A stretch of 64,000 bases of DNA, taken from Candidatus Omnitrophota bacterium. Lineage in GTDB: Bacteria > Omnitrophota > Gorgyraeia > Tantalellales > Tantalellaceae. Shown here one piece after another: positions 2,853-37,725 of the stretch (the first letter of the stretch is position 1; each line of letters starts with the position of its first letter). The notes beneath the pieces were generated by a model. The model worked only from the letters and a program-made list of their open reading frames with translations. It ran no database searches and was not told the DNA's origin. The position numbers and the translations under genes are program-made. The stretch is from assembly GCA_028715965.1 (NCBI GenBank), contig JAQUQS010000006.1, positions 50,163 to 114,162 on the forward strand, in the 5' to 3' direction.

Positions 2853-4208
2853 ATGATCCCGAAGACTATTGTCGAAAAAGTACCTCCTCAGAACGTTGAA
2901 GCCGAGATAGCGGTCCTTGGATCAATGCTTATCGACCGGGACGCGATATCCAGGGCCGTTGAGTTCATCGGGGAGGCGTCCTTCTACTTGGAGGCCCACA
3001 AAAGGGTCTTTTCCTCCATCGTTAAGCTATATGATTCGAACAACGCGGTCGATATAGTTACTCTTACCGAGGAACTGCAGAAAAAGAACCACCTGGACGG
3101 TATCGGCGGACCCGCGTATATTTCCAGTCTAGCGAACAGTATCCCGACAGCGGCTAATGTAGAACATTACGCCAAGATAGTCAGGGACAAGCATCTTTTA
3201 AGAAAGCTCATAAATACGGCAACGCAGATCGTCACGGAAGGGTATGATCCCTCGAACGAAGTTGACGACCTTCTCGACAAGGCTGAAAAGCTCATATTCG
3301 ATATCACCTCGAACCAGCGTGGTGAGATGAGCGTGCTCCAGATGAAGGATATAGTCAAGGATACCATCGAGACCATAGATAATCTCTACCAGCGCAAAGA
3401 GAACATCACCGGCATACCCACGGGTTTTCATGATCTTGATGTGAAGCTCGCGGGACTCCAGAAATCAGATCTTATAGTGCTGGCGGGCCGTCCATCCATG
3501 GGGAAAAGCGCGCTGGCTCTTTCCATACTGGAATACGCAGGTGTAGTAGCCCAGGTGCCGTCCGCATACTTCAGCCTTGAAATGTCGAAAGAACAGCTTG
3601 CCCAGAGAATGCTGTGTTCCATTGCCGGGGTGAACGCCCATAAGGTCAGGACAGGGTTCTTTTCCCAGAACGAATGGCCTAAGCTGGTTGACGCGGCCGG
3701 CAAACTGTCGGAATCACCGATATATATAGACGATACCCCGGGCATCTCCGCGCTTGAACTCAGGGCCAAGGCGCGCAGGCTCAAATCCAGGTACAATATA
3801 CAGCTCCTGATCATCGACTATATACAGCTCATGAAAGGGGCCTCCAACATAGAGAATCGCCAGCAGGAAATATCGGACATATCAAGGTCGATGAAAGCTC
3901 TCGCGAGGGAGCTCGACATACCGATCATAGGGATAAGCCAGCTGTCGCGCGCGGTGGAGCAAAGGGCTGACCACAGGCCGATGTTGTCGGACCTCCGGGA
4001 GTCCGGAGCCATCGAGCAGGACGCTGATGTCGTTATGTTGCTTCTGAGGGAAGAATACTATGCGCCTACGGAGGAAAATAAGGGTAAAGCGGAAGTGATA
4101 ATCGCCAAACAAAGGCACGGCCCAGTGGGAAGCGTTATGCTGGCATTTCTGCCGGAATTCACGAAATTCGGTAATTTATCAAGAATAGAAGAGGAAGAAG
4201 GTTTCTGA
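2853..4208 (+). CDS. dnaB: replicative DNA helicase DnaB
   Basis: A DnaB N-terminal domain (PPQNVEAEIAVLGSML) precedes a RecA-fold helicase with Walker A (GRPSMGKSALAL) and the IIDYIQLM and GISQLSRAVEQR motifs. Confidence 0.93.
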   Translation: MIPKTIVEKVPPQNVEAEIAVLGSMLIDRDAISRAVEFIGEASFYLEAHKRVFSSIVKLYDSNNAVDIVTLTEELQKKNHLDGIGGPAYISSLANSIPTAANVEHYAKIVRDKHLLRKLINTATQIVTEGYDPSNEVDDLLDKAEKLIFDITSNQRGEMSVLQMKDIVKDTIETIDNLYQRKENITGIPTGFHDLDVKLAGLQKSDLIVLAGRPSMGKSALALSILEYAGVVAQVPSAYFSLEMSKEQLAQRMLCSIAGVNAHKVRTGFFSQNEWPKLVDAAGKLSESPIYIDDTPGISALELRAKARRLKSRYNIQLLIIDYIQLMKGASNIENRQQEISDISRSMKALARELDIPIIGISQLSRAVEQRADHRPMLSDLRESGAIEQDADVVMLLLREEYYAPTEENKGKAEVIIAKQRHGPVGSVMLAFLPEFTKFGNLSRIEEEEGF

Positions 4209-23104: not shown

Positions 23105-24394
23105 ATGATAAAAGTAAGGTTCGCTCCCAGTCCCACAGGTTTTCTGCATCTGGGTAGCGCGCGCACGGCTCTTTTTAACTGGCTTTACGCCCGCCGTACC
23201 GGGGGGACATATGTCCTGAGGATAGAGGATACGGATAAGGAGAGGTCAAAGGAAGAATTCCTCAACGAGATCCTGGAAGACCTGAAATGGCTGGGGCTGG
23301 ACTGGGACGGAGACCCGGTCTTTCAGAGTGACAGGTTCGACATATACAGGCAAAAAGCGGAAGGCCTTGTGGAGCAAGGTAAGGCATATATGGAAGGCAG
23401 CGCTATCATCTTTCGGGTGGAAAAAGGGCGGGATATAGAGATAGACGATATGATACATGGCAAGATAAAATTCAATACCGACGAGCTGAAGGACCAGGTA
23501 ATGATAAAATCCGACGGATCGCCGGCATATAATTTCTGCTGCGTGGTGGACGACTCCGAAATGGGGATCACCCATATCATACGTGGGGACGACCATATCT
23601 CCAATACGCCAAAACAGATGCTCTTTTATGAAGCGTTCGGCTGTGAGCCCCCCAGGTTCGGGCATATGCCGCTCATGATGGGCACGGATGGAGCCAAGCT
23701 TTCTAAAAGGCATGGCGGCGTATCTGTGGAGGAATACAGGACGGAAGGGTTCCTGCCGCAGGCGCTTATAAACTATCTCATGCTGCTTGGTTGGTCTCCC
23801 GGGGAAGAACGCGAAGTGCTTTCGCTCGGGGAAGCGATAGATATCTTTGATATTTCCGACATGACAGGGGTCCAGGCGAAGTTCGACGTCCAGAAACTGA
23901 GATGGTTGAACGGCGAATATATCATGAAACTTCCCCTTACGGAACTTAGTGGGCTCTTATCCGAGAGGGTAAAAAAGGCCGGGCTGGAGATATCCTCCAT
24001 CGGAGATGAGGGGTTCGCTAAACTGGTTGAGCTTTATCGCATGAGGATAAAGACATTGAGTGAGTTCGTGCCGCTGACAAAGTTCTTTTTCTCGGATGAG
24101 TTTGAGGTCGACGAAAAAGGATGGAAAAAATATCTGGAGGACGAAGGTAACCGTGATAATCTCAGGGAATTCTCCTCGAGGTTGCCCGGGCCAGACCAGT
24201 TCACGCATGATAATATAGAGGCGGTATGCCGGGCAATAGCTGAAGAAAGACAGCTCAAGGCGGCTCAGATAATACATCCTACCAGGATGGCTATAAGCGG
24301 TATTACCCAGGGAGCGGGGCTCTTCGAGATGATGGAGCTTCTTGGAAGGGAAAAGACCGTAGAACGCATGGAGAAAGCCGCCTCGGGACGATAA
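23105..24394 (+). CDS. gltX: glutamyl-tRNA synthetase (compact ~429-aa form)
   Basis: Class I HIGH (HLGSART) and KMSKS (KLSKRHG) motifs are present with the RFAPSPTGFLH N-terminus. GlnRS is encoded nearby, so this enzyme is presumably discriminating. Confidence 0.9.
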   Translation: MIKVRFAPSPTGFLHLGSARTALFNWLYARRTGGTYVLRIEDTDKERSKEEFLNEILEDLKWLGLDWDGDPVFQSDRFDIYRQKAEGLVEQGKAYMEGSAIIFRVEKGRDIEIDDMIHGKIKFNTDELKDQVMIKSDGSPAYNFCCVVDDSEMGITHIIRGDDHISNTPKQMLFYEAFGCEPPRFGHMPLMMGTDGAKLSKRHGGVSVEEYRTEGFLPQALINYLMLLGWSPGEEREVLSLGEAIDIFDISDMTGVQAKFDVQKLRWLNGEYIMKLPLTELSGLLSERVKKAGLEISSIGDEGFAKLVELYRMRIKTLSEFVPLTKFFFSDEFEVDEKGWKKYLEDEGNRDNLREFSSRLPGPDQFTHDNIEAVCRAIAEERQLKAAQIIHPTRMAISGITQGAGLFEMMELLGREKTVERMEKAASGR

Positions 24395-24466
24395 ATAGAA
24401 AAAAGGCTTTAAAAATAAGGGACTTGTAGTATAATAATTTTCCGGAATTCGCACGACAAAAACACC

Positions 24467-24584
24467 GCTGGGATGTAGCCGCATACCAGAGATCCCGCGG
24501 ATCACGGTATACGGCGCGTGTAATTGGTAACAGGACCCCTGTACCGTGATCACGAAGTGATCTCTGGTACAGGGCAGCTGACTC
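24467..24584 (+). pseudogene. degenerate 5' fragment of tRNA-Gln interrupted by two ~40-nt mutually complementary insertions
   Basis: Three segments are identical to the downstream tRNA-Gln: aacaccgctgggatgtag, tgtaattggtaaca and cagctgactc. They are separated by insertions at 24479-24518 and 24533-24574. The first insertion contains accagagatc and gatcacggta, and the second contains their reverse complements taccgtgatc and gatctctggt. There is no anticodon 3' half, T-arm or acceptor 3' strand. Confidence 0.6.
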
Positions 24585-24662
24585 CGTGTATAATAAATGC
24601 ATTTTTTGATAATGTCTCAAGTTGTAAAGCAAAATAAGTAAGTTATACATAAAAAACACCGC

Positions 24663-24737
24663 TGGGATGTAGTGTAATTGGTAACACAGCTGACTCTGGA
24701 TCAGCCGTTCCTGGTTCGAGTCCAGGCATCCCAGCCA
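24663..24737 (+). tRNA. tRNA-Gln (anticodon CTG), CCA encoded
   Basis: Manual fold gives acceptor TGGGATG/CATCCCA (U1:A72), discriminator G73, D-stem GTGT/ACAC, anticodon stem GCTGA/TCAGC with loop CTCTGGA (U33, anticodon CUG, A37), T-arm CCTGG-TTCGAGT-CCAGG and an encoded CCA. Confidence 0.85.
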
Positions 24738-24744
24738 TATATAA

Positions 24745-24770
24745 AAAAACCCTCTTTTGAGGGTTTTTTT
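24745..24770 (+). terminator. rho-independent terminator after tRNA-Gln
   Basis: aaaccctc tttt gagggttt is followed by a T7 run. Confidence 0.7.
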
Positions 24771-25084
24771 ATATGCCCGCGGAAGCGGGGGACGAGGGGT
24801 ATAAGATAAGAAATACCCCGAGTGACTGAGGACGCAATGTCCGAAGAAATGCCGCGAAGTCCCCTGAGCGGCCTGACCAGATAGCTTTTAACCCCTAACT
24901 GTTTACAGAATAAGTAGATGGGAGTACAATAACTGGAGTTGGGATAATAAGAAGTTATGATGTGTTAATGCCGTCCTACAAATGTATTGACAGCTTTACT
25001 GTTATGCTAACAGGAGAATGATATTATAGATTTTTCTGATTGGGGATAAAATGGTTATGAAGAGAAGAATGGTAGGAGGACGAA

Positions 25085-26065
25085 ATGGCTAAGCCTAGGG
25101 TTTTTATAAGTTCAACTTATTATGACATGAGGAATGTTAGGGCGGATTTGGAGAGATTTATTTTAGAACAAGGATATGAGCCCGTTTTGTTCGAGAGAGG
25201 GCATATTGCTTATGGTACGGAAGAGCGGGTGGAAGAAGATTGTTATAGGGAAATTAATACTTGCGACATATTAATAAATATCATTGGTGGTAAAATTGGG
25301 ACGCAGTCAAGAAGCACACAATATTCTATTTCACAAAATGAGCTAAAAGAAGCAATTAAGTTGGGAAAGCAGATATATATATTTGTAGAACGGCCAGTTC
25401 TAGCCGAATATAGTACCTTTATTGCAAATAAGGAAGTAGCGGGTTTCAAGGCAACTGCCGTGAATGATTTAAAGGTATATTCTTTTCTTGAAGAAATATT
25501 CGCACTTTCTGGAAAAAATCCAGTGCAGGGTTTTGAGGTTTCAGAAAACATTACCACTTTTCTCAGGGAACAGTGGGCAGGACTTTTTCAGGTATTACTG
25601 CAGGAACGTGCTAGGCAAAAGGAAGTAAATTTACTAGGCAGAATTGAAACGACTGCAGATACATTAGATAGGTTAGTAAAGTTTTTAACTGAAGAACGAA
25701 GTCAGGGCGACCAGGCCATTAAGGATATTCTTCTAAGCAATCACCCATTGTTCAAGTCTTTAAAGAAGCAACTTAACATTCCATATCGTATCTTTTTTGA
25801 AACACGCGATGAAATGGAAGCTTTGCTTGTAGCCAGAAAAACTAATCTAATTGAAGAGAAAGAGTGGGATGATGCAGAATATATAGAGTATTTGTGTGAA
25901 TGGTGGAAGAATACCACAAAAATTCTAAAGATAAAAGAAGATCTTTTTGACGAAGAAGGAAGGCTAAAAATATTTAAACCAGATGAGTGGGATGAAAGCG
26001 CCGTTATTTTGGAAGAAATAGAAAAAAATAATACTAGTGGAGAAGATTTAGAAGTTCCTTTTTAG
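25085..26065 (+). CDS. hypothetical protein with an N-terminal TIR-like (DUF4062-like) domain, an alpha-helical C-terminal domain, and a C-terminal SSB-tail-like EDLEVPF
   Basis: AGGAGG lies 7 nt upstream of the ATG. The N-terminus RVFISSTYYDMRNVRADLERFI resembles the VFISST..DM..R..L signature of DUF4062/TIR-like domains, and a conserved Glu sits in IYIFVERP. The C-terminal 170 aa are Glu/Lys-rich and helical, and the last residues are EVPF as in the host SSB. Confidence 0.6.
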   Translation: MAKPRVFISSTYYDMRNVRADLERFILEQGYEPVLFERGHIAYGTEERVEEDCYREINTCDILINIIGGKIGTQSRSTQYSISQNELKEAIKLGKQIYIFVERPVLAEYSTFIANKEVAGFKATAVNDLKVYSFLEEIFALSGKNPVQGFEVSENITTFLREQWAGLFQVLLQERARQKEVNLLGRIETTADTLDRLVKFLTEERSQGDQAIKDILLSNHPLFKSLKKQLNIPYRIFFETRDEMEALLVARKTNLIEEKEWDDAEYIEYLCEWWKNTTKILKIKEDLFDEEGRLKIFKPDEWDESAVILEEIEKNNTSGEDLEVPF

Positions 26066-26117
26066 CTATTACTTATGTTTATATGGTGAGCGCTTGGGTA
26101 AATTCCAGTTGGACAAG

Positions 26118-26128
26118 TCCCAGCCATA
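26118..26128 (+). repeat. direct repeat of tRNA-Gln 3' end (att-like right boundary of islet)
   Basis: This is an exact 11-nt match, TCCCAGCCATA, to tRNA-Gln positions 24727-24737. Confidence 0.55.
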
Positions 26129-26132
26129 AAAA

Positions 26133-26158
26133 ATACCCGCCTTTGGCGGGTTTTTTTA
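26133..26158 (+). terminator. rho-independent terminator downstream of islet CDS
   Basis: cccgcc tttg gcggg is followed by a T7 run. Confidence 0.7.
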
Positions 26159-26452
26159 TGGTCAAAGGCCTGTGGCCTTTGTCTGTTCCCGGCTCGGGTT
26201 TCCGGCTGGGAACAAGTTCCCGCCGCTAAACCTCACCGGTTCCAGCTGTGATGCCTGGGATCCTGCGCATCTCGTCAGCTCGGTGCTGGTACGATCAGGG
26301 GACAACTTAAGCTATGGTTGGGGACAGTTTAAGCGGGAGTTTGTACCCGGTACAAGCTTTTGGCGTAGCCAGTACTTATTTACTGAAAAACTCCGCTTCG
26401 TATGATAAAATATCACATCAACAATTGTTATAACAAGTTAGAGGAGAGGGAC

Positions 26453-28141
26453 ATGGCGGGCGAGGAAAGACCTGTGACGAATTTCATAAGAGAGATAATA
26501 GATGAAGACCTCAAGAGGGGAAAGAACGACGGACGCGTGCATACGCGGTTCCCGCCGGAACCCAACGGGTACCTCCATATAGGACACGCCAAATCCATAT
26601 GCCTTAATTTCGGCCTGGCAAAAGATTACAACGGCCTGTGCAATCTGCGTTTTGATGATACAAATCCTGAAAAAGAAGAGGTAGAATACGTGGATTCTAT
26701 AATGGAAGACGTCAGGTGGCTGGGATTCGACTGGGCCGACAGGATGTATTACGCGTCGGATTATTTCGACAAGTTATATGAATTCGCGGTCACGCTCATA
26801 AAGACAGGGAAAGCTTACGTATGTGACCTTAACGCCGAACAAATGAGGGAATACAGGGGGACATTGACCGCGCCCGGGAAGGAAAGCCCGTACAGGAAAA
26901 GGAGCGTTGAGGAGAACCTGGAACTGTTTGCCGGGATGAGGAACGGCGAGTTCGATGAGGGGGAAAAGGTCTTGAGAGCGAAAATAGACATGGCCTCTCC
27001 CAATGTCACCATGCGCGACCCGATAATATACCGCATAAAAAAAGCTAACCACCACCGGACGGCTGATAAATGGTGTATCTATCCCATGTATGATTTCACG
27101 CATTGTCTTTCAGATTCACTTGAGGGGATAACCCATTCCATATGTACGATGGAGTTCGAGAATAACCGTCCGCTGTATGACTGGTTCCTCGACCAGCTGG
27201 GTGTGCATCACCCCCAGCAGATCGAGTTCGCGAGGCTCAACCTGGGGCATACTGTGCTTAGCAAGAGAAAACTTCTTGAGCTTGTAACCGAAAAATATGT
27301 GGACGGCTGGGATGATCCGCGTATGCCCACCATTTCCGGGTTGCGCAGGCGGGGATATACCCCGGAAGCGATCAGGGGTTTCTGTGAAAAGATAGGGGTC
27401 GCTAAATTCAACAGTATCGTTGATATGGTGGTCCTGGAGAACAGCATAAGAGAAGATCTGAACAAAACGGCCCCGCGCGTCATGGCCGTACTCGATCCGC
27501 TCAGGGTGGTCATAACGAATTATCCAGAGGGTAAGTCCGAAGAGCTCGACGCGGTCAATAACCCTGAAGACCCTTCGATGGGAAGGAGAAAGGTCCCGTT
27601 CTCGAAGGTCCTTTATATAGAGAAAGACGATTTTCGCGAAGACCCGCCGAAAAAATTCTTCAGACTCGCGCCCGGCAGAGAGGTCAGGTTAAGGTACGCG
27701 TATTTCGTAAAATGTGAAGATGTCATCAGGGATGATAGTACGGGAGAGATCATAGAGATACATTGTACTTACGACCCGGAGACACGTGGCGGTGACGCGC
27801 CGGACGGACGTAAGGTAAAAGGAACTATACACTGGGTGTCCGCGGAACATGCTTTTAAGGCAAAAGTAAGGTTGTATGACCATCTTTTCTCTAAAAGGAA
27901 CCCCAATGAAGAGGAAGAAGGAAAGGGATACAAAGATAGCCTTAATCCCGATTCGCTTATTGTCCGGGACGGATGTTTCCTGGAACCGGCGCTTTCGATC
28001 GCTGTCCCCGGATCGCGATATCAATTCGAACGAACGGGATATTTCTGTGTGGATACAAAGGATTCGTCTCCCGGCGCCCCAGTTTTCAACAGAACGGTAA
28101 CATTAAGGGACTCGTGGGCGAAGATAGAAAAGACCCAGTAG
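26453..28141 (+). CDS. glnS: glutaminyl-tRNA synthetase
   Basis: The ATG at 26453 follows GGAGAGG. Class I motifs HIGH (HIGHAKS) and a KMSKS-like motif are present with the [15 protein letters not shown]-terminus. Length and the anticodon-binding beta-barrels fit GlnRS rather than GluRS. Confidence 0.9.
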
Positions 28142-28373: not shown

Positions 28374-31300
28374 ATGCATATGAAAAGAACATATCCTTTC
28401 TATCTGGTGTTTATCCTTGCGCTACTCTTTACCAGTACCTTTTCGGAAGCCTACACAGAGGCCTACTCAGGACAGGAACTTGGACCTCGTGACGATATTA
28501 TGACAAAAAAACGCGTTAACGTGCTTTTAGAGGAAAGGGAGACCCTTCTCGAGGAACAGAAAGGTCTTTTGGAATACATGGGGATAATGGAAGAAGAGAT
28601 AGCAAGGCTCAAGAAAGAGGTTTCGGAATCCAGGAAGGGTCTTATGTCGGAAGTGGAAAAGACCAAAAAAGAACTTAGGGAACGGCTAGGGCAGCTGGAA
28701 GAAGAGAATGATACACTTAGGCGGCAACGGCAGATACTTGCCCGTAAATTAGTCGACCTTAAGGATGTAACGAAAACCTGGGACGGAGACACTGGTCCTT
28801 CAGGGGTGGATGATGCCGGGCTAAAAGGGCTAAAGAACGAGAACGATGAACTTTTGAAGGAGAATAGTGATCTTCGCGGGCAGATAGAGAAAGAAAGAAA
28901 AAAGAACGACAGGATCGAAGAAGATCTTAAGTCCGAAAAAGAAAAGGTCTCAAGGATCCAGAGATCACTCGAGAACGGGGTTAGCCAGGCTGCCGCGATC
29001 ATTGATGAAAAAGACGCGGAAATAAGGGAGCTTAGGAAAGAAAGCACGATCCTGTCGGTCAGGATAAGGGAAGCGGAGAAAGAGAACCTGGACCTCAGGA
29101 ACTCTTTAGGGGACTCCAAGACGGGGGCCGGTGTGGAAGATACTGGCAGTAGGGAGGATATCGCGCCCGGTCTTGAGGAGAAGATAAAAGAGCTTCAAAC
29201 GGTAATAAAAAGCCTGGAAAGGAAAAACCTTTCTTTACGGGAAGAGAATTCCAGGCTGGGAAAGACAGCTGTAAAGACCGGAACGCCCCAGGGAGGGCAG
29301 GACGAAGGGGTCGAAGGATACGTGTCCGATATAAGGGAAAAGAACGCCATCATATCGGAGTTACGTGGGGAAAAAGAAATGCTGGGAAAAAGGTTATCTA
29401 TCGCGATCAACGCCAAGAAAGCCTTAGAGGAAGAGCTTGCCAAGAGCCGGGTATCGACCGAAGCGGATGTTGACGCGGCGCGTCAGGAGCTCAAGAGCTC
29501 ATATGACGATATGGTTGAGGGGCTTAAGAAAGAGAACAGTGGCCTTCGGTCCGAGTTGTCGTCATCTGCCGGCAGGGAAAAGCGTCTTGTCGATGAGCTG
29601 GAAAAGACAAGGACGGGGATGAAGGAGCTTCTGGCGGACAACCAGAGAAAAGACCTGGCGCTGAAGAAGGTCATGGATCACCGCGAAGACGTCGAGAAAA
29701 AGCACAAGGACCTCGAGCGAAAGAATATCATGCTTGAGACCGAGCTGAAGAACCTCAACGCGCTCCAGGCCACAGAAAAAGAAAAGGCCCGGGAAGAGAT
29801 AAGCGCTGAGTACGAGGGCAGGATCAAAAGCCTGGCGCGAGAAAAGAACAAGCTGATGTCAGGGCTTGCCGAGCTGGAGAAAGAGCTCTTGGACATGAAG
29901 GATCGAGAGAAAGACGTGGAAAATGACAGGGTAAAAGAGCGGGATGAAAGAAAAGAGATGATCCGTGTGTTGACCAAGAAATACGCCAAGCGGGAAAGGG
30001 CTATCCTGGATGAGCGTGACGCCATGAAGGAAAAGATGGATGCCGCGAAGAAAGAGCTTGCCGATATACGGAAAGAAAAAGACGCGATACTGTTAGACAA
30101 AGAAGCGGCTGAAAAGGACAGGCAGGTCGCGGTGGAAGAAGCCCAGCTTATACGCCAGCAGGTTTCCCGGCTAAAGGATGATCTTTTAGAAAAAGAGGAG
30201 ATCGACAAGAAAAAGGCTAATGATTTCTATGTGCGAAAAGCGGCACTTCTTGAGAACGAGAACAAGGTCCTCAGGGATAACGTGAAAGAGATCAAAGAGA
30301 ACATGGCAAAAAAAGATGAAAGGACCAAAGAACTGCTTTCCGGCGCGGATGACATGAAGGCAGAGCTTGAAAAGGTTTCGCGGGAAAAAAGAGCCCTTTT
30401 GGAAGAGATAGATACGCTTAAGGCTTCAATGGAAAAGATAATGTCCGAAAAGGACGGTACCTATGCTACGGTCGAAAGCCTGCAAGGGAAGATACTGGCG
30501 CTTGAAAAAGAGCGTGACGATATGGGGAAAGAACTCGAGGGCTTGAGAGCAAGGAACAGCGTGGATATAGACGCAAAGCTCAGGGAAGCTGAGGGGGTGA
30601 TCTCCGAAAAGCAGGAAAGCATAAATACGCTTCTCGCCGACATCAAAGAGAAACAGGAAGAGGCGGAGAGGCTTTCGGGGGAAAAAGACGCGCTGGTAGA
30701 GAAAATGAAGGAAACATTGAAGGAGAAATACCTGTTGGAGAACAAGGCCAGGGACATCCTGAAGGAAAAATATGTCCTGGAAGAGGAGCTCGCGGCAGTA
30801 AGGGCCGGCGCGGAAAAGACCGCTACGAATGTGGAGGAATTTTCCGAGAAGGCCGGTGAGCTTGGGCAGCAGAACGCCGTTCTATCACGGGAAGTCAGGG
30901 AGCTTGAGGGTAAATTGGACGATATCTCCCGGGAGTTGGAGATGACTGAACAGGAGAACGAGGGGCTCAATGCCGACATTAAGGAATACCAGGCGCAGAT
31001 AAACGGGTTCAGCGCGGAGAGAGAGAGATTGAACGCCCAGATAAGGGCGATCCGGGGGCAAGCGGTCACCCCGGCAGGCGGAGCCAACGAGTTCGAGTCG
31101 TATATGTCTAAAATGGATACGGTCGTAGCGGAACGTGTAGAGGCGGAGAGGAAACTTGCTCAAGAAGCCTTTGATCGTAAGATAGAGGCGTACAAGAAAG
31201 AGGTTGGAGCATTGAGGGCGCAGCTTGACGCCAAAGGAAAAGATAGCGATACACGTGTGGATGTAAAAGGGGATTACGAGAGGCAGATGAAGGAAAAAGA

Positions 31301-31802
31301 CGGCAAGATCAAGGATTACGAAGATGCCTTGAGCAAGGAATTGGCCACCGTACGGGTCCTACAACGCAAGCTGAATGATACCAGGAAAAAACTCGCTGAT
31401 CTCGGATCGTCATTTGAGGCTACGATAACGGATAAGCAGAACATAATAGACAGGACGGGGAAAGACCTTGCCGCCGCGCGCAGCCAGGAAAAGGACATAA
31501 AAGAAAAATACCAGAAGGTCATGAGGGATCTTTCGAGCGCTTTACAGGGTAAGTCCAGTCTGGAGAAAAAACTCAAAGCCTACGGATCGGAAATAGACAG
31601 GATGAAAAAGAAAATAAGATCAAAGGGAACATCGGACAGCCGGGAGCCTTCCGGAAAACTTGAACGTGAAGTGCGGGCGTTGCGGGACGAGAACTCCGAA
31701 CTGAAACAACGGCTTGATATATTGCAGAAAGAGATAGAAGAGCTAAGGATGATGAACGCTAGGTCCCCCGTGCCGGTACATGTGGCCGGTGCCTCGAATT
31801 AA
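28374..31802 (+). CDS. giant secreted coiled-coil protein (1142 aa), function unknown
   Basis: The signal peptide is MKRTYPFYLVFILALLFTSTFSEA. More than 1000 aa follow of heptad-pattern Glu/Lys/Leu-rich sequence with no globular domain, and the C-terminus is Pro/Val-rich. Confidence 0.7.
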   Translation: MHMKRTYPFYLVFILALLFTSTFSEAYTEAYSGQELGPRDDIMTKKRVNVLLEERETLLEEQKGLLEYMGIMEEEIARLKKEVSESRKGLMSEVEKTKKELRERLGQLEEENDTLRRQRQILARKLVDLKDVTKTWDGDTGPSGVDDAGLKGLKNENDELLKENSDLRGQIEKERKKNDRIEEDLKSEKEKVSRIQRSLENGVSQAAAIIDEKDAEIRELRKESTILSVRIREAEKENLDLRNSLGDSKTGAGVEDTGSREDIAPGLEEKIKELQTVIKSLERKNLSLREENSRLGKTAVKTGTPQGGQDEGVEGYVSDIREKNAIISELRGEKEMLGKRLSIAINAKKALEEELAKSRVSTEADVDAARQELKSSYDDMVEGLKKENSGLRSELSSSAGREKRLVDELEKTRTGMKELLADNQRKDLALKKVMDHREDVEKKHKDLERKNIMLETELKNLNALQATEKEKAREEISAEYEGRIKSLAREKNKLMSGLAELEKELLDMKDREKDVENDRVKERDERKEMIRVLTKKYAKRERAILDERDAMKEKMDAAKKELADIRKEKDAILLDKEAAEKDRQVAVEEAQLIRQQVSRLKDDLLEKEEIDKKKANDFYVRKAALLENENKVLRDNVKEIKENMAKKDERTKELLSGADDMKAELEKVSREKRALLEEIDTLKASMEKIMSEKDGTYATVESLQGKILALEKERDDMGKELEGLRARNSVDIDAKLREAEGVISEKQESINTLLADIKEKQEEAERLSGEKDALVEKMKETLKEKYLLENKARDILKEKYVLEEELAAVRAGAEKTATNVEEFSEKAGELGQQNAVLSREVRELEGKLDDISRELEMTEQENEGLNADIKEYQAQINGFSAERERLNAQIRAIRGQAVTPAGGANEFESYMSKMDTVVAERVEAERKLAQEAFDRKIEAYKKEVGALRAQLDAKGKDSDTRVDVKGDYERQMKEKDGKIKDYEDALSKELATVRVLQRKLNDTRKKLADLGSSFEATITDKQNIIDRTGKDLAAARSQEKDIKEKYQKVMRDLSSALQGKSSLEKKLKAYGSEIDRMKKKIRSKGTSDSREPSGKLEREVRALRDENSELKQRLDILQKEIEELRMMNARSPVPVHVAGASN

Positions 31803-31830: not shown

Positions 31831-34800
31831 ATGATGGTATGTAAGAGAATGGTACGTTCGAGTTTGCCGATCGCTTTCCTTGTGTTATCACAGGCGGTGC
31901 GGCCCATATATGCTGATGGAGAGGCAGCCACGCCTATCACGATCACGGCGAAAAGTAATAACGCCGTGATGTTCGGTAATAGCGGGAGGGATGAAAGCGG
32001 TATCGCCGATGGGCAGACAAGCGCTATCAGGCAGAAAGAGACGGAGATCGAGATATTAAAGGCGCAGCTTGAAGAAGCCAACGAAAGGCTGGCCACGAAA
32101 GAAAGATCTACCGGAGACAGCACGTCCAGATTGCGTAACCTGGTGGCGCGAATAGATGCCCTGGAAAAAGCTTCCAGGGAAAAGATCGCGTCATACGAGA
32201 AAGAGATAGCGGAGCTTAAAGCCGGGTCGGTCGAGAAGAACATATACCAGGGTACGGCCGGGGAGAAGGACCGGATAGAAATAAACAAACTCAAAACGGA
32301 GCTGGCCGGCGCGAAAGACGCTTTATCCCGTAAAATAGAAGAAGTCGCGGCCATGGACCGCGATCTCTCCCGCGTTAAGGAAGAAAAAAATAGCGCGCAA
32401 GCTGAAGCGGCATCTTTCAGGAACGCGCTATCGGAAAAGAGCCGTGAGTTAAGTTCCGTGCTGGAGGCGCATGCATCCCTGAAAAAAGAGCTGGATACCG
32501 CCATGGCGGGGATGAACGGGATCAAGGGGACAGAGGAAGATGGTGTTAAGGACGAAGAGGCTTTGTCCGTGCTGGAAAGCAAGGTACGGGACGGGGAAGA
32601 GACCATATCGTCCTTGAAAGAAGAGATAGTTTCCAGTAATATCAGGGCGGAAAAATATCTCGGGGATATCGAAGCGGCGAAAAAAGAGATAGAACGGTAT
32701 AAGGAGGACATCAGCAGGTTGTTGGCGGAGAACGCAAAATACCAGGAGAGGATAGACGCGTTGGACAAGGAAAGAACGGAAAAAGATATCGCGTCCGATG
32801 AGGCTATCTTGAAGGTCGAAGCGGCGGAACGGGAAGCGTCAGCGTACAAGGAAGATCTGTCCGCGGCCCAGGCGGAGGTGCGGAGCAATAAGGAGAGGAT
32901 AGACGCCCTCAAAAATGAAATAGCGGCCGGCGTGGCGAACATTAAGAAAAAAGAGGATATTATTAATGGGTTGACCGCTGAGATCGATTCCGAAAGAAAA
33001 AAGGCCCTTACTTACGCCGGACAAACGAAGGAGTATGAGGCAAAAATAAAGCGTATGGAGGAAGACCTGGCTCGCATGATCGACGCATCGGGAAAAAAGG
33101 ACGAGGAAATGACGTCACTCAGGGCTGAGATCGATGACTTGAGGAAGATCGAGGAACAAAAAGAGACCACGCGTGATAGTTTGAGCGGCGAGCTGGAGAT
33201 AAAGAAAAAGGAATTAGCTAATTTCGTAGAGGGGTTCGAGGCTTATAAAGAGAAGTATGCCGCGGAGGTCATCGATAGAGAAAAAGAGATAGAAAACCTC
33301 AGGAATGATCTTGCTGCCGGCAAGTCCAAGTTGGAAGACGCGAGGAAGGAGCTTGACAAGGAGAGAGGCGCCCTAAGGAACAAGGACGCGCGCATAAAGG
33401 AATTGGAGGGAAAGTTATCCTCCATGGAAGCCTTGGCCGAGGCAAAGTCCGCGGAAATGGAAAAGGGCCTGTCAGAACACCTGGAGACGATAAAGGTCAG
33501 GAACGAGGAAATAGGTAAGCTTAACGAAAAGATCGGGTCTTTTCAGGAGCAATTCAAGACCTTTTCCGACGCCAAGGATTCTGAAGTGGCTTTAAAAGAC
33601 AGCGAGATAGAGAGGCTAACGTCGGAAGTGAGGGGCCTGAAGGATGTCGCGATATCTAAGGATAAAGAGATCAACGCCCTCAAAAAGAACATGTCCGGGC
33701 TTGAGGGCAGGATAAAAGAAAATTCCATGAATTATGCTAAAGAACTGGACGCTTTAAAGGTGTCGATCGAAACAATAAGCAAAGAGAAAGAGGATATGGC
33801 CGCGGAGCTCAAGTCCAAGGCCGACGAGGTCAAGACTCTCACGGAAAGCCAGGAGGAAATGAACGTTTCTCTCGAGGCATACAAAAAAGACGTGACTTCC
33901 GGGGTGGCGGAAATAAGCGAGCTAAAGGCGCGTTTGGGGCGAACGGATGACGAGATGAAAACGCATCTTGCGGAATATGAGAAAGAGATCGCGGCGCTTG
34001 AGGCAGAGCTTGAGGAAAAGAACGCTAAAATGATCGAACTGGATTCGAGCCTGAGTTCGTATAAAGAGCAGTTCATAAGTTTTTCAGAAGAAAAAGACAA
34101 GGAGATAGCCGCCCAGAAAGACAAGATAACGTCACTTGAGAAGGAGAACGCGGTATTCTCAAAGGAGCGCATGGACCTCAAAGACAAAGAGTCGCGCCAG
34201 GCCGGCAGGATAAATGAGCTCGAGCGGGAAACGGGCCGGATAAAAGATAAGGCCGCGAAAATAATCTCAAAGTATAAGGAGGAAGTAGAAACGCTTGAGG
34301 CCAGATCGTTGTCGGTCCAGTCCCAACTTACGCAGGCACAACAGGAAGCGGAAGCGCTAAGGGATGAAAAGGCGAGAAAAGAACTTGAAAAAGACGAAAG
34401 GACCGCGCAATTCCAGTATATGTCGGCCAGTCTCAAGCGTGCTATGCGCAAGACCATAGACGCGGGTGAAGTGGCAGTTTCGGCCTCGGATAAGGGGGTT
34501 AAAGTATCGGTCCTTAGTGATGTCCTGTTCGGGCCGGGAAGTGCCGATATCAGTTCCGGGGGGAAAAGTGTCTTATCGGATATTGGTAACGCCCTCCAGA
34601 AAAGTATGTCCGGAAATAAGATCGTTATCGAGGGGCATACGGATAACGTGCCTATACGCAGGTCCGGATGGAAGTCGAATTGGGACCTGTCCAGCCAGAG
34701 AGCGATATCCGTATTGCATTATTTTACTGATGACCTTGGTATGACCCCGGATGATATGCGGGTGACCGGATATGGACAATATCGCCCGATAGCGGATAAT

Positions 34801-34869
34801 TCGACCGAGGAAGGGCGCAACCGGAACCGAAGGGTCGAGATACTGGTGCTCCCGGTGGCGGAAAACTAA
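31831..34869 (+). CDS. giant secreted coiled-coil protein (1012 aa) with C-terminal OmpA/MotB-type peptidoglycan-binding domain
   Basis: A signal peptide ending at the IYA-DGE cleavage region is followed by about 850 aa of coiled-coil. The C-terminal domain (VLFGPGSADISSGGKSVLSDIGNAL..IVIEGHTDNVPI..SNWDLSSQRAISVLHYF..TGYGQYRPIADNSTEEGRNRNRRVEILV) matches OmpA_C. Confidence 0.8.
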   Translation: MMVCKRMVRSSLPIAFLVLSQAVRPIYADGEAATPITITAKSNNAVMFGNSGRDESGIADGQTSAIRQKETEIEILKAQLEEANERLATKERSTGDSTSRLRNLVARIDALEKASREKIASYEKEIAELKAGSVEKNIYQGTAGEKDRIEINKLKTELAGAKDALSRKIEEVAAMDRDLSRVKEEKNSAQAEAASFRNALSEKSRELSSVLEAHASLKKELDTAMAGMNGIKGTEEDGVKDEEALSVLESKVRDGEETISSLKEEIVSSNIRAEKYLGDIEAAKKEIERYKEDISRLLAENAKYQERIDALDKERTEKDIASDEAILKVEAAEREASAYKEDLSAAQAEVRSNKERIDALKNEIAAGVANIKKKEDIINGLTAEIDSERKKALTYAGQTKEYEAKIKRMEEDLARMIDASGKKDEEMTSLRAEIDDLRKIEEQKETTRDSLSGELEIKKKELANFVEGFEAYKEKYAAEVIDREKEIENLRNDLAAGKSKLEDARKELDKERGALRNKDARIKELEGKLSSMEALAEAKSAEMEKGLSEHLETIKVRNEEIGKLNEKIGSFQEQFKTFSDAKDSEVALKDSEIERLTSEVRGLKDVAISKDKEINALKKNMSGLEGRIKENSMNYAKELDALKVSIETISKEKEDMAAELKSKADEVKTLTESQEEMNVSLEAYKKDVTSGVAEISELKARLGRTDDEMKTHLAEYEKEIAALEAELEEKNAKMIELDSSLSSYKEQFISFSEEKDKEIAAQKDKITSLEKENAVFSKERMDLKDKESRQAGRINELERETGRIKDKAAKIISKYKEEVETLEARSLSVQSQLTQAQQEAEALRDEKARKELEKDERTAQFQYMSASLKRAMRKTIDAGEVAVSASDKGVKVSVLSDVLFGPGSADISSGGKSVLSDIGNALQKSMSGNKIVIEGHTDNVPIRRSGWKSNWDLSSQRAISVLHYFTDDLGMTPDDMRVTGYGQYRPIADNSTEEGRNRNRRVEILVLPVAEN

Positions 34870-35889: not shown

Positions 35890-36384
35890 AACCTGCCCCT
35901 TCTTAGTAAATTCATTTAATAAGTTTTTTATCTACCCGCACCAATTATATCATGTAGCTTAGCTAAATAAAAAGCAAGAAAATCTAAATATTTCATGTTT
36001 AACTGAAAGGGTGATTTTCTTAGCTTTGGAATATTAAGGAGTTAGATGTAAAAAATGTGTTCTCATTCTTGGAGAGATTCACCATCGGCCTTAACAAAAA
36101 GTTAACAAAAAAACAGCTAGGTATAGCTTCTTGCTTTTTATAAATATACAGATAAACTTAGTATAGTAATGAACGTTCTTTAAAAGTAACTAAATCTGTT
36201 CGATAAGGGCAAACTATCCGAAAGGTTAGGACGCAAAACCGTGAGCCTAAAGCCTATATATAGGTAAAGGTCGTCCGGTTGCCGAAAACAATCCCGCATA
36301 GTATATCCATAAGCTGCGGAAACGCTGTTCGTCCTTTCGGGAATGCCACTTATCCTGGTGTGGAGAAAGAAAGGATGGACTAGT

Positions 36385-37725
36385 ATGGTCAATAAAGGCG
36401 TAAGACCGTGGCGATCCCATTGTAAAAGAACGGCTTGTTCATTTTTGGCAATTGTGTTCCTGGTGAGCACGATGATGCCGACTACATCTATAGGTATGTC
36501 CAGGGGCCTGAAGGTCCCGTATTTCCAGAAGGGTATTTGTTATGTGACCTGGGAAAAGGACAAATTCGCCAGTAAATATTCCGACCAGTCGATCGAAATG
36601 CTTAAGAACCTAGGTGTGGAATATCTGCAGATAAACGTAACATGGTACCAGCAGAGCTATAATTCCACCAGGATAGCGGAAACCGAACTTACGCCATCGG
36701 ACAAGAGCGTAAGGCACGCTATACAGAAAGCCCATAAATGCGGCCTGAAAGTCATGCTAAAGCCACATATTGATATTATAAACAGCGGTGATGGGTACTG
36801 GCGGGCGGATATCGGGTTCTATAAAGAGGAAGACTGGGACAAGTGGTTCAAGGAATACGACAACTTCATATCACATTACGCTAATATGGCACAAAAAGAG
36901 AATGTGGAAATATTCTGTGTGGGTACGGAACTTTCCTTCGCGGCACAAAAAGAAGAGAGATGGCGGACACTGATCGGCCATATCAGGGCTATATATCCCG
37001 GGAAGCTTATATACGCGGCCAACTGGGATAACTACAAGAACATAAGATTCTGGGACGCGCTGGATTATGCCGGCATAGACGCGTATTTCCCTTTAAGTTA
37101 TAAAAAGAATCCCGACCTAGAAGACCTGAAAAAAGGGTGGGAAAAGTGGATATACGAGATAAGTGTGTGGCACGCGGAGGTTAACAAGCCGGTCATATTC
37201 ACTGAAATAGGCTATTCCAGTTCCAGCATAGCGCCGAGCGAGCCGTGGAAAAACGGGGTGGGGGAAGCCGATGTGGCGTTGCAGGCTAGGTGTTATGAAG
37301 CGTTCTTTGAGTCAGTATGGAGATGTGACTGGCTCGAGGGGGTATATTGGTGGAGATGGGCGCCGACCGTCAAGGGCGGCGGTATGTATAACAGAAGGTA
37401 CACCCCACTTAATAAGCCGGCCGCCGAGATACTCGCGAAAAGGTATAAGGAGGTGAGCTCACCCGCGACCGGGTATACTACGGCGGAACGCATATCACGG
37501 GAAGCGGATCGCGCCCAGGAAGGGTCCGTGATGAAAAACGCGCCGATCGACGAGAAATTCGCCGCTTCCGCGGTATTCAAGGCCCAGAGGCAGGTGACGC
37601 CTGAAACGAATATACAAGCTATGGCCGGAACGGCTACCCTCATGCCGGAACTCAAGACAAAATACAAGAAAGAGTTCAGGAATGAATGGGAAATGAAACG
37701 CACGGAATTCATGGCAACGGAATAA
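36385..37725 (+). CDS. secreted glycoside hydrolase, clan GH-A (TIM-barrel) family
   Basis: The product has a signal peptide and a (beta/alpha)8-like motif spacing. A putative acid/base sits in CVGTELS and a nucleophile in the IFTEIGYSS (xTExG) motif typical of GH5-like enzymes. The ATG at 36385 follows AAAGGATGG. Confidence 0.55.
   Translation: MVNKGVRPWRSHCKRTACSFLAIVFLVSTMMPTTSIGMSRGLKVPYFQKGICYVTWEKDKFASKYSDQSIEMLKNLGVEYLQINVTWYQQSYNSTRIAETELTPSDKSVRHAIQKAHKCGLKVMLKPHIDIINSGDGYWRADIGFYKEEDWDKWFKEYDNFISHYANMAQKENVEIFCVGTELSFAAQKEERWRTLIGHIRAIYPGKLIYAANWDNYKNIRFWDALDYAGIDAYFPLSYKKNPDLEDLKKGWEKWIYEISVWHAEVNKPVIFTEIGYSSSSIAPSEPWKNGVGEADVALQARCYEAFFESVWRCDWLEGVYWWRWAPTVKGGGMYNRRYTPLNKPAAEILAKRYKEVSSPATGYTTAERISREADRAQEGSVMKNAPIDEKFAASAVFKAQRQVTPETNIQAMAGTATLMPELKTKYKKEFRNEWEMKRTEFMATE

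Follow-up and report, generated by a model that had tools for sequence, protein, structure and literature searches.

Islands of the integrase type insert into tRNA genes and restore them with a 3′-end copy of their own, and the duplications made by tRNA-integrating integrase elements involve the 3′ part of the tRNA. Group I introns in tRNA genes are recognized by two exons that enclose, within the anticodon loop, a ribozyme core of at least 200 nt. In fungal mitochondria (Allomyces), double-hairpin elements occur, as well as insertions of endonuclease genes with duplicated gene ends. REP and REPIN palindromes form inverted heterodimers with a spacing of 20-100 bp, can fold either separately or as one long hairpin, and have a dedicated nuclease gene flanked by repeats (PMC3733652, PMC8049555). 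In phage T4, a free-standing GIY-YIG homing endonuclease, SegB, is encoded in a tRNA gene cluster (PMC2330249). We analysed a 64-kb stretch of DNA from an Omnitrophota bacterium (64,000 nt, hereafter the window), in which a partial copy of tRNA-Gln, split by two hairpins, lies upstream of the intact gene. We consider, with a probability of roughly 0.7, that these elements are the remains of a small cassette found at the tRNA-Gln genes of Omnitrophota and of some bacteria of the candidate phyla radiation (CPR).

In the window, gltX (23105-24394) is followed, in this order, by a strong promoter, the partial copy, tRNA-Gln, its terminator, a DUF4062 gene (25085-26065), a repeat (26083-26160) and glnS (Table 1). 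An earlier interpretation, made from the letters and their open reading frames (the sequence-only reading), had described three blocks identical to the 5′ half of tRNA-Gln and separated by two inserts. All three matches proved to be exact, and summed they constitute a colinear 45-nt copy of the intact gene with 100% identity. The start, which had been set at 24467, had to be moved to 24458, given that nine further duplicated bases of the leader had been missed. The inserts measure 40 nt (24479-24518, with a 1-nt ambiguity at a G) and 42 nt (24533-24574). Using the Rfam alignment as a ruler, the insertion sites, between G10 and U11 and between A24 and C25, correspond to the two sides of a single step of the D-stem, that is, between the pairs 10-25 and 11-24. 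The Logan assembly of run SRR22315506 (L028) coincides with the window over 5,983 nt, partial copy included, and this independent sequence makes an error of a single assembler unlikely.

Table 1. Features of the tRNA-Gln locus, in positions of the window (L numbers designate loci of other genomes).
Feature	Position	Strand	Evidence or remark
Promoter P1 (TTTAAA, 16 nt, TATAAT)	24408-24435	+	Top sigma-70-like match of the region, 10/12
Partial tRNA-Gln, block 1: leader AAAAACACCGC (11 nt) and tRNA positions 1-10	24458-24478	+	21/21 identity with 24652-24672
Insert 1, hairpin(+)	24479-24518	+	Self-folds; aligns with family alignment A2
Insert 1, self-folding core	24478-24515	+	GCCG.C.ATACC-AGA-GATCC-CGC-GGATC-AC-GGTAT.A.CGGC
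Partial tRNA-Gln, block 2: remaining D-stem and D-loop, positions 10-24	24518-24532	+	15/15 identity with 24672-24686
Insert 2, hairpin(-) of the same family	24533-24574	-	Self-fold z = -5
Insert 2, core, bottom strand	24537-24574	-	CCCTGTACC-AGA-GATCAC-TTC-GTGATC-AC-GGTACAGGG
Partial tRNA-Gln, block 3: 5′ strand of anticodon stem and loop to C34, positions 25-34	24575-24584	+	10/10 identity with 24687-24696
AT-rich spacer, 67 nt, with a second TATAAT (24589-24594)	24585-24651	+	Positional equivalent of the GIY-YIG gene in L012, L107, L099, L110, L120
Second copy of the 11-nt leader, directly 5′ of the intact tRNA	24652-24662	+	Leader likewise repeated in L012, L107
Intact tRNA-Gln(CTG)	24663-24737	+	ARAGORN; Rfam tRNA 66.3 bits
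Hairpin terminator of tRNA-Gln	24739-24774	+	Perfect 16-bp inverted repeat, then T run
Degenerate tRNA 3′ part (TCCCAGCCATA exact) and homologous terminator, after the DUF4062 gene	26083-26160	+	Local alignment from position 35; terminator scan

It had also been stated that nothing of the 3′ half of the tRNA follows the partial copy. This holds locally, but a degenerate copy of the 3′ end is found farther downstream, at 26083-26160. The local alignment of this repeat with the tRNA 3′ part scored 60 (shuffle mean 21 ± 4), a value mostly due to the 11-nt 3′ end and the terminator, the latter being homologous to the tRNA-Gln terminator with compensatory changes. The repeat aligns from tRNA position 35, and the upstream partial copy ends at position 34. 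The DUF4062 gene encodes 326 aa and lies between the intact tRNA-Gln and the repeat; the whole stretch, 24775-26160, resembles a small island without an integrase, located at the 3′ end of the tRNA, and the separate 3′ repeat may mark this other island.

Where tRNA-Gln was found among 26 related loci, the order was mostly gltX, glnS, promoter and tRNA-Gln. The comparison of L002 and L029 with positions 23105-28141 of the window revealed that gltX and glnS abut or overlap in these relatives, with tRNA-Gln after them. A promoter and tRNA-Gln between gltX and glnS were observed in the window and in L107, which matches the unusual placement of the window. In none of the 13 relatives whose upstream region was read is there a partial copy within 120 nt 5′ of tRNA-Gln; that of L012 lies ~370 nt upstream. 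The sequence 'cttgtagtataat' around P1 is kept ~25-35 nt upstream of tRNA-Gln in the relatives, but in the window it precedes the partial copy, and this indicates that the partial copy holds the ancestral tRNA-Gln promoter. The nearest gltX outside this organism has only 73% identity, and the databases contain no close relative. Additionally, glnS in the window has its own GC-rich upstream region of 290 nt (26165-26453), without an Rfam match, and it is directly followed by a 1,142-aa ORF without a Pfam match (28374-31802) and by a 1,012-aa ORF (31831-34869). A c-di-GMP-I riboswitch aptamer (73.8 bits) is present at 36198-36286, upstream of the ORF at 36343-37725.

The mutual complementarity noted for the inserts was confirmed (TACCAGAGATC with GATCTCTGGTA, and GATCACGGTA with TACCGTGATC), and the fold prediction proposed for this region, carried out on 24455-24600, yielded -57.2 kcal/mol (z = -4.6), with 0/200 shuffles as stable. 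Each insert also folds on itself into a hairpin of ~38 nt. Both hairpins follow a common design, on opposite strands: a GC-rich foot, (A/G)TACC, an unpaired AGA, a variable short stem-loop, AC, GGTA(T/C), and the foot again; in the family, the foot reads CC[C/G]TG[A/T]ACC-AGA...GGT[T/A]CA[G/C]GG. The inserts share ~71% identity, while the tRNA blocks that flank them are 100% identical to the real gene. With flanks free of substitutions, this divergence indicates that neither insert is a recent copy of the other, and it led us to reject a template-switch origin of insert 2 from insert 1. The differences between them are compensated within each insert, as illustrated by GATCC-CGC-GGATC versus GATCAC-TTC-GTGATC and by an A-T versus a G-C pair in the foot.

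For the family search we used a covariance model, R1, trained on the two inserts of the window and one look-alike hairpin from a metagenome contig. As training sequences, the inserts received scores that are not independent: 58.9 bits for insert 1 and, for insert 2, 64 bits on the minus strand versus 30 bits on the plus strand. The independent support for the family consists of the R1 matches in other loci. With exact and mismatch patterns, blastn-short, inverted-repeat scans and R1 with its filters off, no other copy of the inserts was detected in the window, and no family hairpin was found elsewhere in the 74 kb of this genome that were read (the window plus 10 kb of upstream contig). The sequence-only reading had raised the prospect that the inserts are a common dispersed repeat; they do belong to a repeat family, but one that is not dispersed in these 74 kb and is tied, across genomes, to loci with tRNA-Gln and a GIY-YIG gene. 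In ~385 kb of other loci (77 kb and 307 kb, the latter from 38 loci), the only unprompted R1 match was in L012, the remaining matches being in loci chosen beforehand by sequence pattern.

The inserts of the window align with 16 hairpins of seven loci (L012, L034, L099, L107, L108, L110 and L114), and the stems covary. In an alignment of 20 hairpins, 93.6% of the cells were paired, 11 of the 17 pairs changed on both sides, and 0/500 shuffles equalled this result; when the partner columns were slid, pairing fell to 25-39%. The alignment was fitted to the model and these figures are somewhat inflated by it; in the raw alignment, the covariation of the foot is plain (C-G/G-C, 9:8; A-U/U-A, 8:8). 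The family hairpin is a real conserved structure. The hairpins nearest in sequence to insert 2 are those of L110. In six of six other loci, folding of each hairpin on its own is energetically favoured over the duplex between the two, and the window alone favours the cross-duplex (-44.3 vs. -37.7 kcal/mol). The long helix between the inserts is peculiar to the window and incidental, not a feature of the family. These comparisons, together with the compensation within each insert, do not support the tRNA-derived structured RNA and the long bipartite helix of the sequence-only reading as conserved features.

Several other identities were considered for the inserts. At E ≤ 10, the Rfam search of the region returned nothing relevant; the only match overlapping the hairpins, mir-1329, was at chance level (19.6 bits against a gathering score of 101), and in L034, L099, L107, L110 and L114 Rfam detected tRNA only. 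The earlier exclusion of a CRISPR repeat and of a group I intron was correct according to Rfam; for the intron, there was no match at E ≤ 10, the inserts, of 40 and 42 nt, are situated in the D-stem, and a 3′ exon is lacking. Inspection of the sequence against the consensus features led us to discard a K-turn, whose expected bases are absent, as well as a dif/lox-like core site and a hix-like site, whose half-sites are offset by 1 nt. The ACCAGA motif of the hairpin is complementary to the CUG anticodon loop; a pairing between them was rejected, with the motif unchanged at tRNA-Gln(TTG) and at tRNA-Gly/Met, and the complementarity is rather to be seen as a historical trace.

Phage and plasmid collections gave no match to the inserts in BLAST, and four pattern scans of the viral collection gave no true matches. 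An exact-arm pattern scan of metagenomes produced three matches, about the number expected by chance: two coincidences in coding sequences and L034. A loose foot pattern produced 61 matches that lack the apical stem of the family; one of them, L038, is a long inverted repeat of another kind. L034 is a GC-rich metagenome contig of 3.3 kb with intergenic hairpins at 1876-1933 and 3115-3162 that show the foot of the window inserts and the AGA/AC internal loop. A tRNA gene is absent from this contig, and a scan of three of its ORFs revealed no GIY-YIG domain. From the terminase-like look of its largest ORF, itself without a Pfam match, our guess is that this contig is phage-like.

The unprompted R1 match, at 6422-6466 of L012 (Candidatus Tantalella remota), was in a locus fetched through gltX only. 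The order there is a promoter ('ttgatagtataat'), the leader AGAATCAACGT, tRNA-Gln positions 1-12, hairpin(+), hairpin(-), tRNA positions 12-19, an ORF of 87 aa, the leader again and the intact tRNA-Gln. The ORF contains a Pfam GIY-YIG domain (E = 3.5e-16), and its closest solved relatives are the UPF0213 proteins 1zg2 and 1ywl (PDB). L011 represents the empty site: a promoter, 'ccagagaataacgt' and tRNA-Gln, with nothing between them, and with tRNA and leader nearly identical to those of the filled site in L012. In the relatives that lack the GIY-YIG gene, the hairpins and the partial copy are missing as well.

Omnitrophota and CPR bacteria have numerous homologues of the L012 ORF (83-92 aa), and the contigs that carry them are often very short; many of these small GIY-YIG homologues were seen on contigs of 0.5-2 kb, which is consistent with multi-copy or repeat-flanked elements that break metagenome assemblies at tRNA-Gln. 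We examined nine further loci with such homologues. R1 hairpins were present in all nine, and eight of them are at tRNA-Gln, including tRNA-Gln(CTG) in L099, L107, L108, L114 and L120 and tRNA-Gln(TTG) in L110 and L121; in a CPR genome, L111 is flanked by tRNA-Gly and tRNA-Met. Most of the nine have partial tRNA-Gln copies around the hairpins. On a systematic map, the recurrent order is the 5′ fragment with the leader, hairpin(+), hairpin(-), the ORF, the leader and the intact tRNA, with short tRNA pieces sometimes between or after the two hairpins. Hairpin(-) is always 5-25 nt from the start of the ORF. Units composed of a fragment and hairpins are often also present downstream, and they are in tandem in L114 and L111. 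In L114, a unit without an ORF (tRNA 26-36, two hairpins, tRNA 34-73) occurs twice at 1880-2121 with a period of 129 nt, and in L111 three hairpins stand in tandem before tRNA-Met at 1795-1918, likewise without an ORF.

The sites of the hairpins vary. The window has them at D-stem 10/11 and 24/25 and L012 at D-arm 12/13; in L107, L099 and L114 they are in the anticodon loop. In L110, whose hairpins resemble those of the window most, one hairpin is inside the D-arm of the partial copy. The anticodon-loop insertions of L099, L107 and L114 show a candidate 2-nt target duplication, 'TG', at junctions that can be drawn in several ways; tentatively, it fits the 2-nt overhangs of GIY-YIG enzymes. The architecture of the cassette, its recurrence, its specificity for tRNA-Gln, the conserved hairpin and the presence or absence between species are what we observed in these loci. 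Full-text literature searches returned no description of cassettes with GIY-YIG genes and hairpins at bacterial tRNA-Gln genes, although such an absence is no proof of novelty.

A second, different small GIY-YIG gene was observed after the 3′ end of a partial tRNA-Gln copy in L099 (2030-2403) and L110 (1970-2394). In both loci, a conserved long inverted repeat of its own (CTTCGACTCG...CGAGTGAGTCGAAG) stands before this gene, an arrangement that suggests a second type of cassette aimed at the tRNA 3′ end. The genome of the window has a second tRNA-Gln (TTG) as well (L036, 6816-6910), on the same contig and ~3 kb before the start of the window. It is located between SpoVG and a GlmU-like gene, the exact site of the GIY-YIG cassettes in L110 and L121, and the sequence after it, TTCTGGTTCGCACGGCA, is similar to the 3′ arm of the family hairpin; this site may be a second cassette relic.

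Compared with these loci, the window contains hairpins that fit the family model and, upstream of the intact tRNA, a partial 5′ copy of tRNA-Gln with its leader, followed by hairpin(+) and then hairpin(-). The layout, tRNA -11 to 10, hairpin(+), 10 to 24, hairpin(-), 25 to 34, can be set beside those of L012, L107, L108 and L110. Every non-coding part is present, in the order and orientation of the cassettes (hairpin(+), hairpin(-), position of the ORF, leader repeat, tRNA). The GIY-YIG gene of 83-92 aa between the hairpins and the intact tRNA is absent, as there is no ORF at this position, and for this reason we file the window as a gene-less derivative and not as a full member. A tblastn search with 120 homologues detected no GIY-YIG remnant in the window, and the similarity of the 67-nt spacer to GIY-YIG ORFs was no higher than that of shuffled sequence, with no detectable coding remnant. 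A 12/13 match of the spacer, TAATAATGCATT, to the start region of L012 was not above shuffled controls. The window locus most likely belongs to the tRNA-Gln cassette lineage. It is probably a decayed or gene-less derivative that arose by deletion, a relic whose deletion is deduced from position; an origin without the nuclease gene from the outset is compatible with the same layout. The tRNA-Gln of the window is now likely made from a structured leader of ~220 nt or from the secondary TATAAT box. The earlier suggestion of a recombination scar at the tRNA was the closest of the three offered, and it can be made specific: the scar is most likely that of a GIY-YIG cassette, matched part for part in other Omnitrophota.

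A full cassette consists of the tRNA promoter, the leader, a partial 5′ tRNA, hairpin(+), hairpin(-), a stand-alone UPF0213-type GIY-YIG gene of 83-92 aa, the repeated leader and the intact tRNA. With its leader and 5′ part repeated in the cassette, tRNA-Gln stays whole, and the old tRNA promoter would transcribe both the nuclease gene and tRNA-Gln. Such a cassette could be regarded as selfish DNA, whose GIY-YIG protein would make the break that enables its spread, through double-strand-break repair, in the manner of homing, or through cutting directed by the hairpins. The hairpins might be recognized as DNA structures, given that one asymmetric motif on both strands is what a DNA element, rather than an RNA motif, would be expected to show. 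From the sequences compared here, a homing or hairpin-nuclease mechanism is a tentative proposal that we hold with less than even confidence. The small GIY-YIG proteins have no visible DNA-binding domain, and structure-specific cutting of hairpins or cruciforms would be a reasonable guess, by homology to Slx1-type enzymes (PMC1564403).

Several aspects count against the cassette reading: the defining gene is missing from the window, the variable positions of the hairpins do not fit a single simple insertion model, and an intact tRNA-Gln beside the nuclease gene is awkward for classical homing, the target being undestroyed. The UPF0213 members of model bacteria are not known to be mobile. As material for a test of homing, there is one pair of empty and filled sites between species (L011 and L012). 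More broadly, UPF0213/Slx1-like GIY-YIG genes with paired hairpins in Omnitrophota and CPR bacteria might represent an undescribed class of mobile elements, whose structure-specific nuclease would recognize its own DNA hairpins, as RAYT transposases do with REPINs; the elements would target tRNA-Gln and carry a replacement leader and 5′ half, with the window as a gene-less, MITE-like member; we put this forward as a conjecture somewhat more likely to fail than to hold.

Among the alternatives, the one that survives best is that the hairpins act as RNA, as processing or stabilizing signals transcribed from the tRNA promoter, forming in the window a structured leader or a small RNA. At this level they could serve as an RNase III site, shield the nuclease mRNA as a 5′ hairpin, or insulate the partial copy from pairing with the 3′ half of the real tRNA. 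The hairpins are indeed part of the transcription unit and come after a strong conserved promoter, and the constant proximity of hairpin(-) to the start of the ORF, the very stable RNA fold of the region (-57 kcal/mol, z = -4.6) and the covarying base pairs would all suit an RNA. However, an asymmetric motif with its unpaired AGA on the 5′ side, placed on both strands, would give differing motifs as RNA. Hairpins are also found downstream of the tRNA, in tandem arrays without an ORF (L114, L111), the cross-pairing of the two hairpins is not conserved, and no Rfam family corresponds to them. We regard an RNA function as unlikely in comparison with the remains of a DNA cassette.

Considerably less probable is that the inserts are ordinary REP/REPIN palindromes that a RAYT or IS200-like transposase moved twice into a dead tRNA copy, in no relation to GIY-YIG genes. 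An inverted pair of ~38-nt imperfect palindromes, 21 nt apart and forming a heterodimer with different loops, is what REP dimers look like (PMC3733652), and a strand-specific, site-specific insertion would be expected to hit the two strands of an inverted repeat symmetrically. The GTAG immediately 5′ of insert 1 would also agree with this explanation, but it is part of the tRNA, and insert 2 has GCTG in that place. Instead of many dispersed copies, there is no further copy in the window or in the 10 kb of contig upstream of it. The family members that we found are at GIY-YIG/tRNA loci, with the two hairpins of L034 as the sole exceptions; the gene tables list no Y1 transposase gene near any locus, and in all full loci the gene beside the hairpins is the GIY-YIG gene and not a repeat-flanked RAYT gene.

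The att scar of an integrase-type island, or a one-off error of replication or repair (tandem duplication plus template switching) with no element family behind it, could appeal to the tRNA as an insertion hotspot, to the DUF4062 gene between the tRNA and its 3′-end repeat with terminator, and to the rearrangement of the locus relative to its relatives, with tRNA-Gln between gltX and glnS and not after glnS, but we consider it extremely improbable and largely refuted by recurrence, inasmuch as the integrase is absent, the duplicated part is the 5′ end with the leader, the 71% identity of the inserts between 100% identical flanks argues against recent copying from one to the other, and the existence of at least 10 further loci with these hairpins in this arrangement excludes a single accident. 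The features of a tyrosine-recombinase att site were not found at the partial copy, where it is a 5′ segment that is repeated and the neighbours are gltX, DUF4062 and glnS, and for the same reasons (no integrase, a duplicated 5′ and not 3′ part of the tRNA) the earlier suggestion of arm-type recombinase sites fails.

On the cassette reading, the window copy is an ordinary relic of the cassette family, and the odd pseudo-tRNA of this locus is explained as debris of a mobile element. For annotators, it is a reminder that a long structured precursor probably gives rise to the tRNA-Gln of the window. Should the nuclease prove to be the mobilizing enzyme, the widespread UPF0213 family could be assigned a function in Omnitrophota and CPR lineages; a third way of parasitizing tRNA genes, beside integrases and group I introns, would be recognized; and the short contigs and assembly breaks at tRNA-Gln in the MAGs of Omnitrophota and CPR bacteria would be explained.

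With respect to the systems mentioned at the beginning, the cassettes and the integrase islands are alike in that the inserted DNA brings a partial tRNA copy, the gene stays intact and a fragment is left at the boundary. The cassettes are nevertheless their mirror image: they repeat the 5′ part and the 11-nt leader, share the promoter, lack an integrase and comprise only ~0.2-0.4 kb. A putative parallel is offered by the fungal mitochondrial elements, which also have a hairpin pair beside a mobile endonuclease ORF and duplicate part of a host gene whose function is kept; they differ in belonging to eukaryotic organelles, in involving protein-coding genes and 3′ ends, and in their unrelated sequences. 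REP/REPIN-RAYT systems have in common with the cassettes the short imperfect palindromes arranged as inverted heterodimers and an associated nuclease gene; in the cassettes, however, this gene is of the GIY-YIG type and not a Y1 transposase, the copies are few and restricted to tRNA loci, and there is no evident GTAG/CGTC tag. Finally, SegB-type genes (PMC2330249) resemble the cassettes in the small nuclease gene among or beside tRNA genes, in being present or absent among relatives, and in the spread by break repair, together with flanks, that is expected of them. In contrast to the SegB type, the cassette proteins consist of a catalytic domain of ~85 aa alone (UPF0213 type), with no recognizable DNA-binding domain and a cleavage activity that is putative, and the cassettes are chromosomal in Omnitrophota and CPR bacteria, where they are accompanied by conserved hairpins and by a repeated 5′ part of the tRNA.
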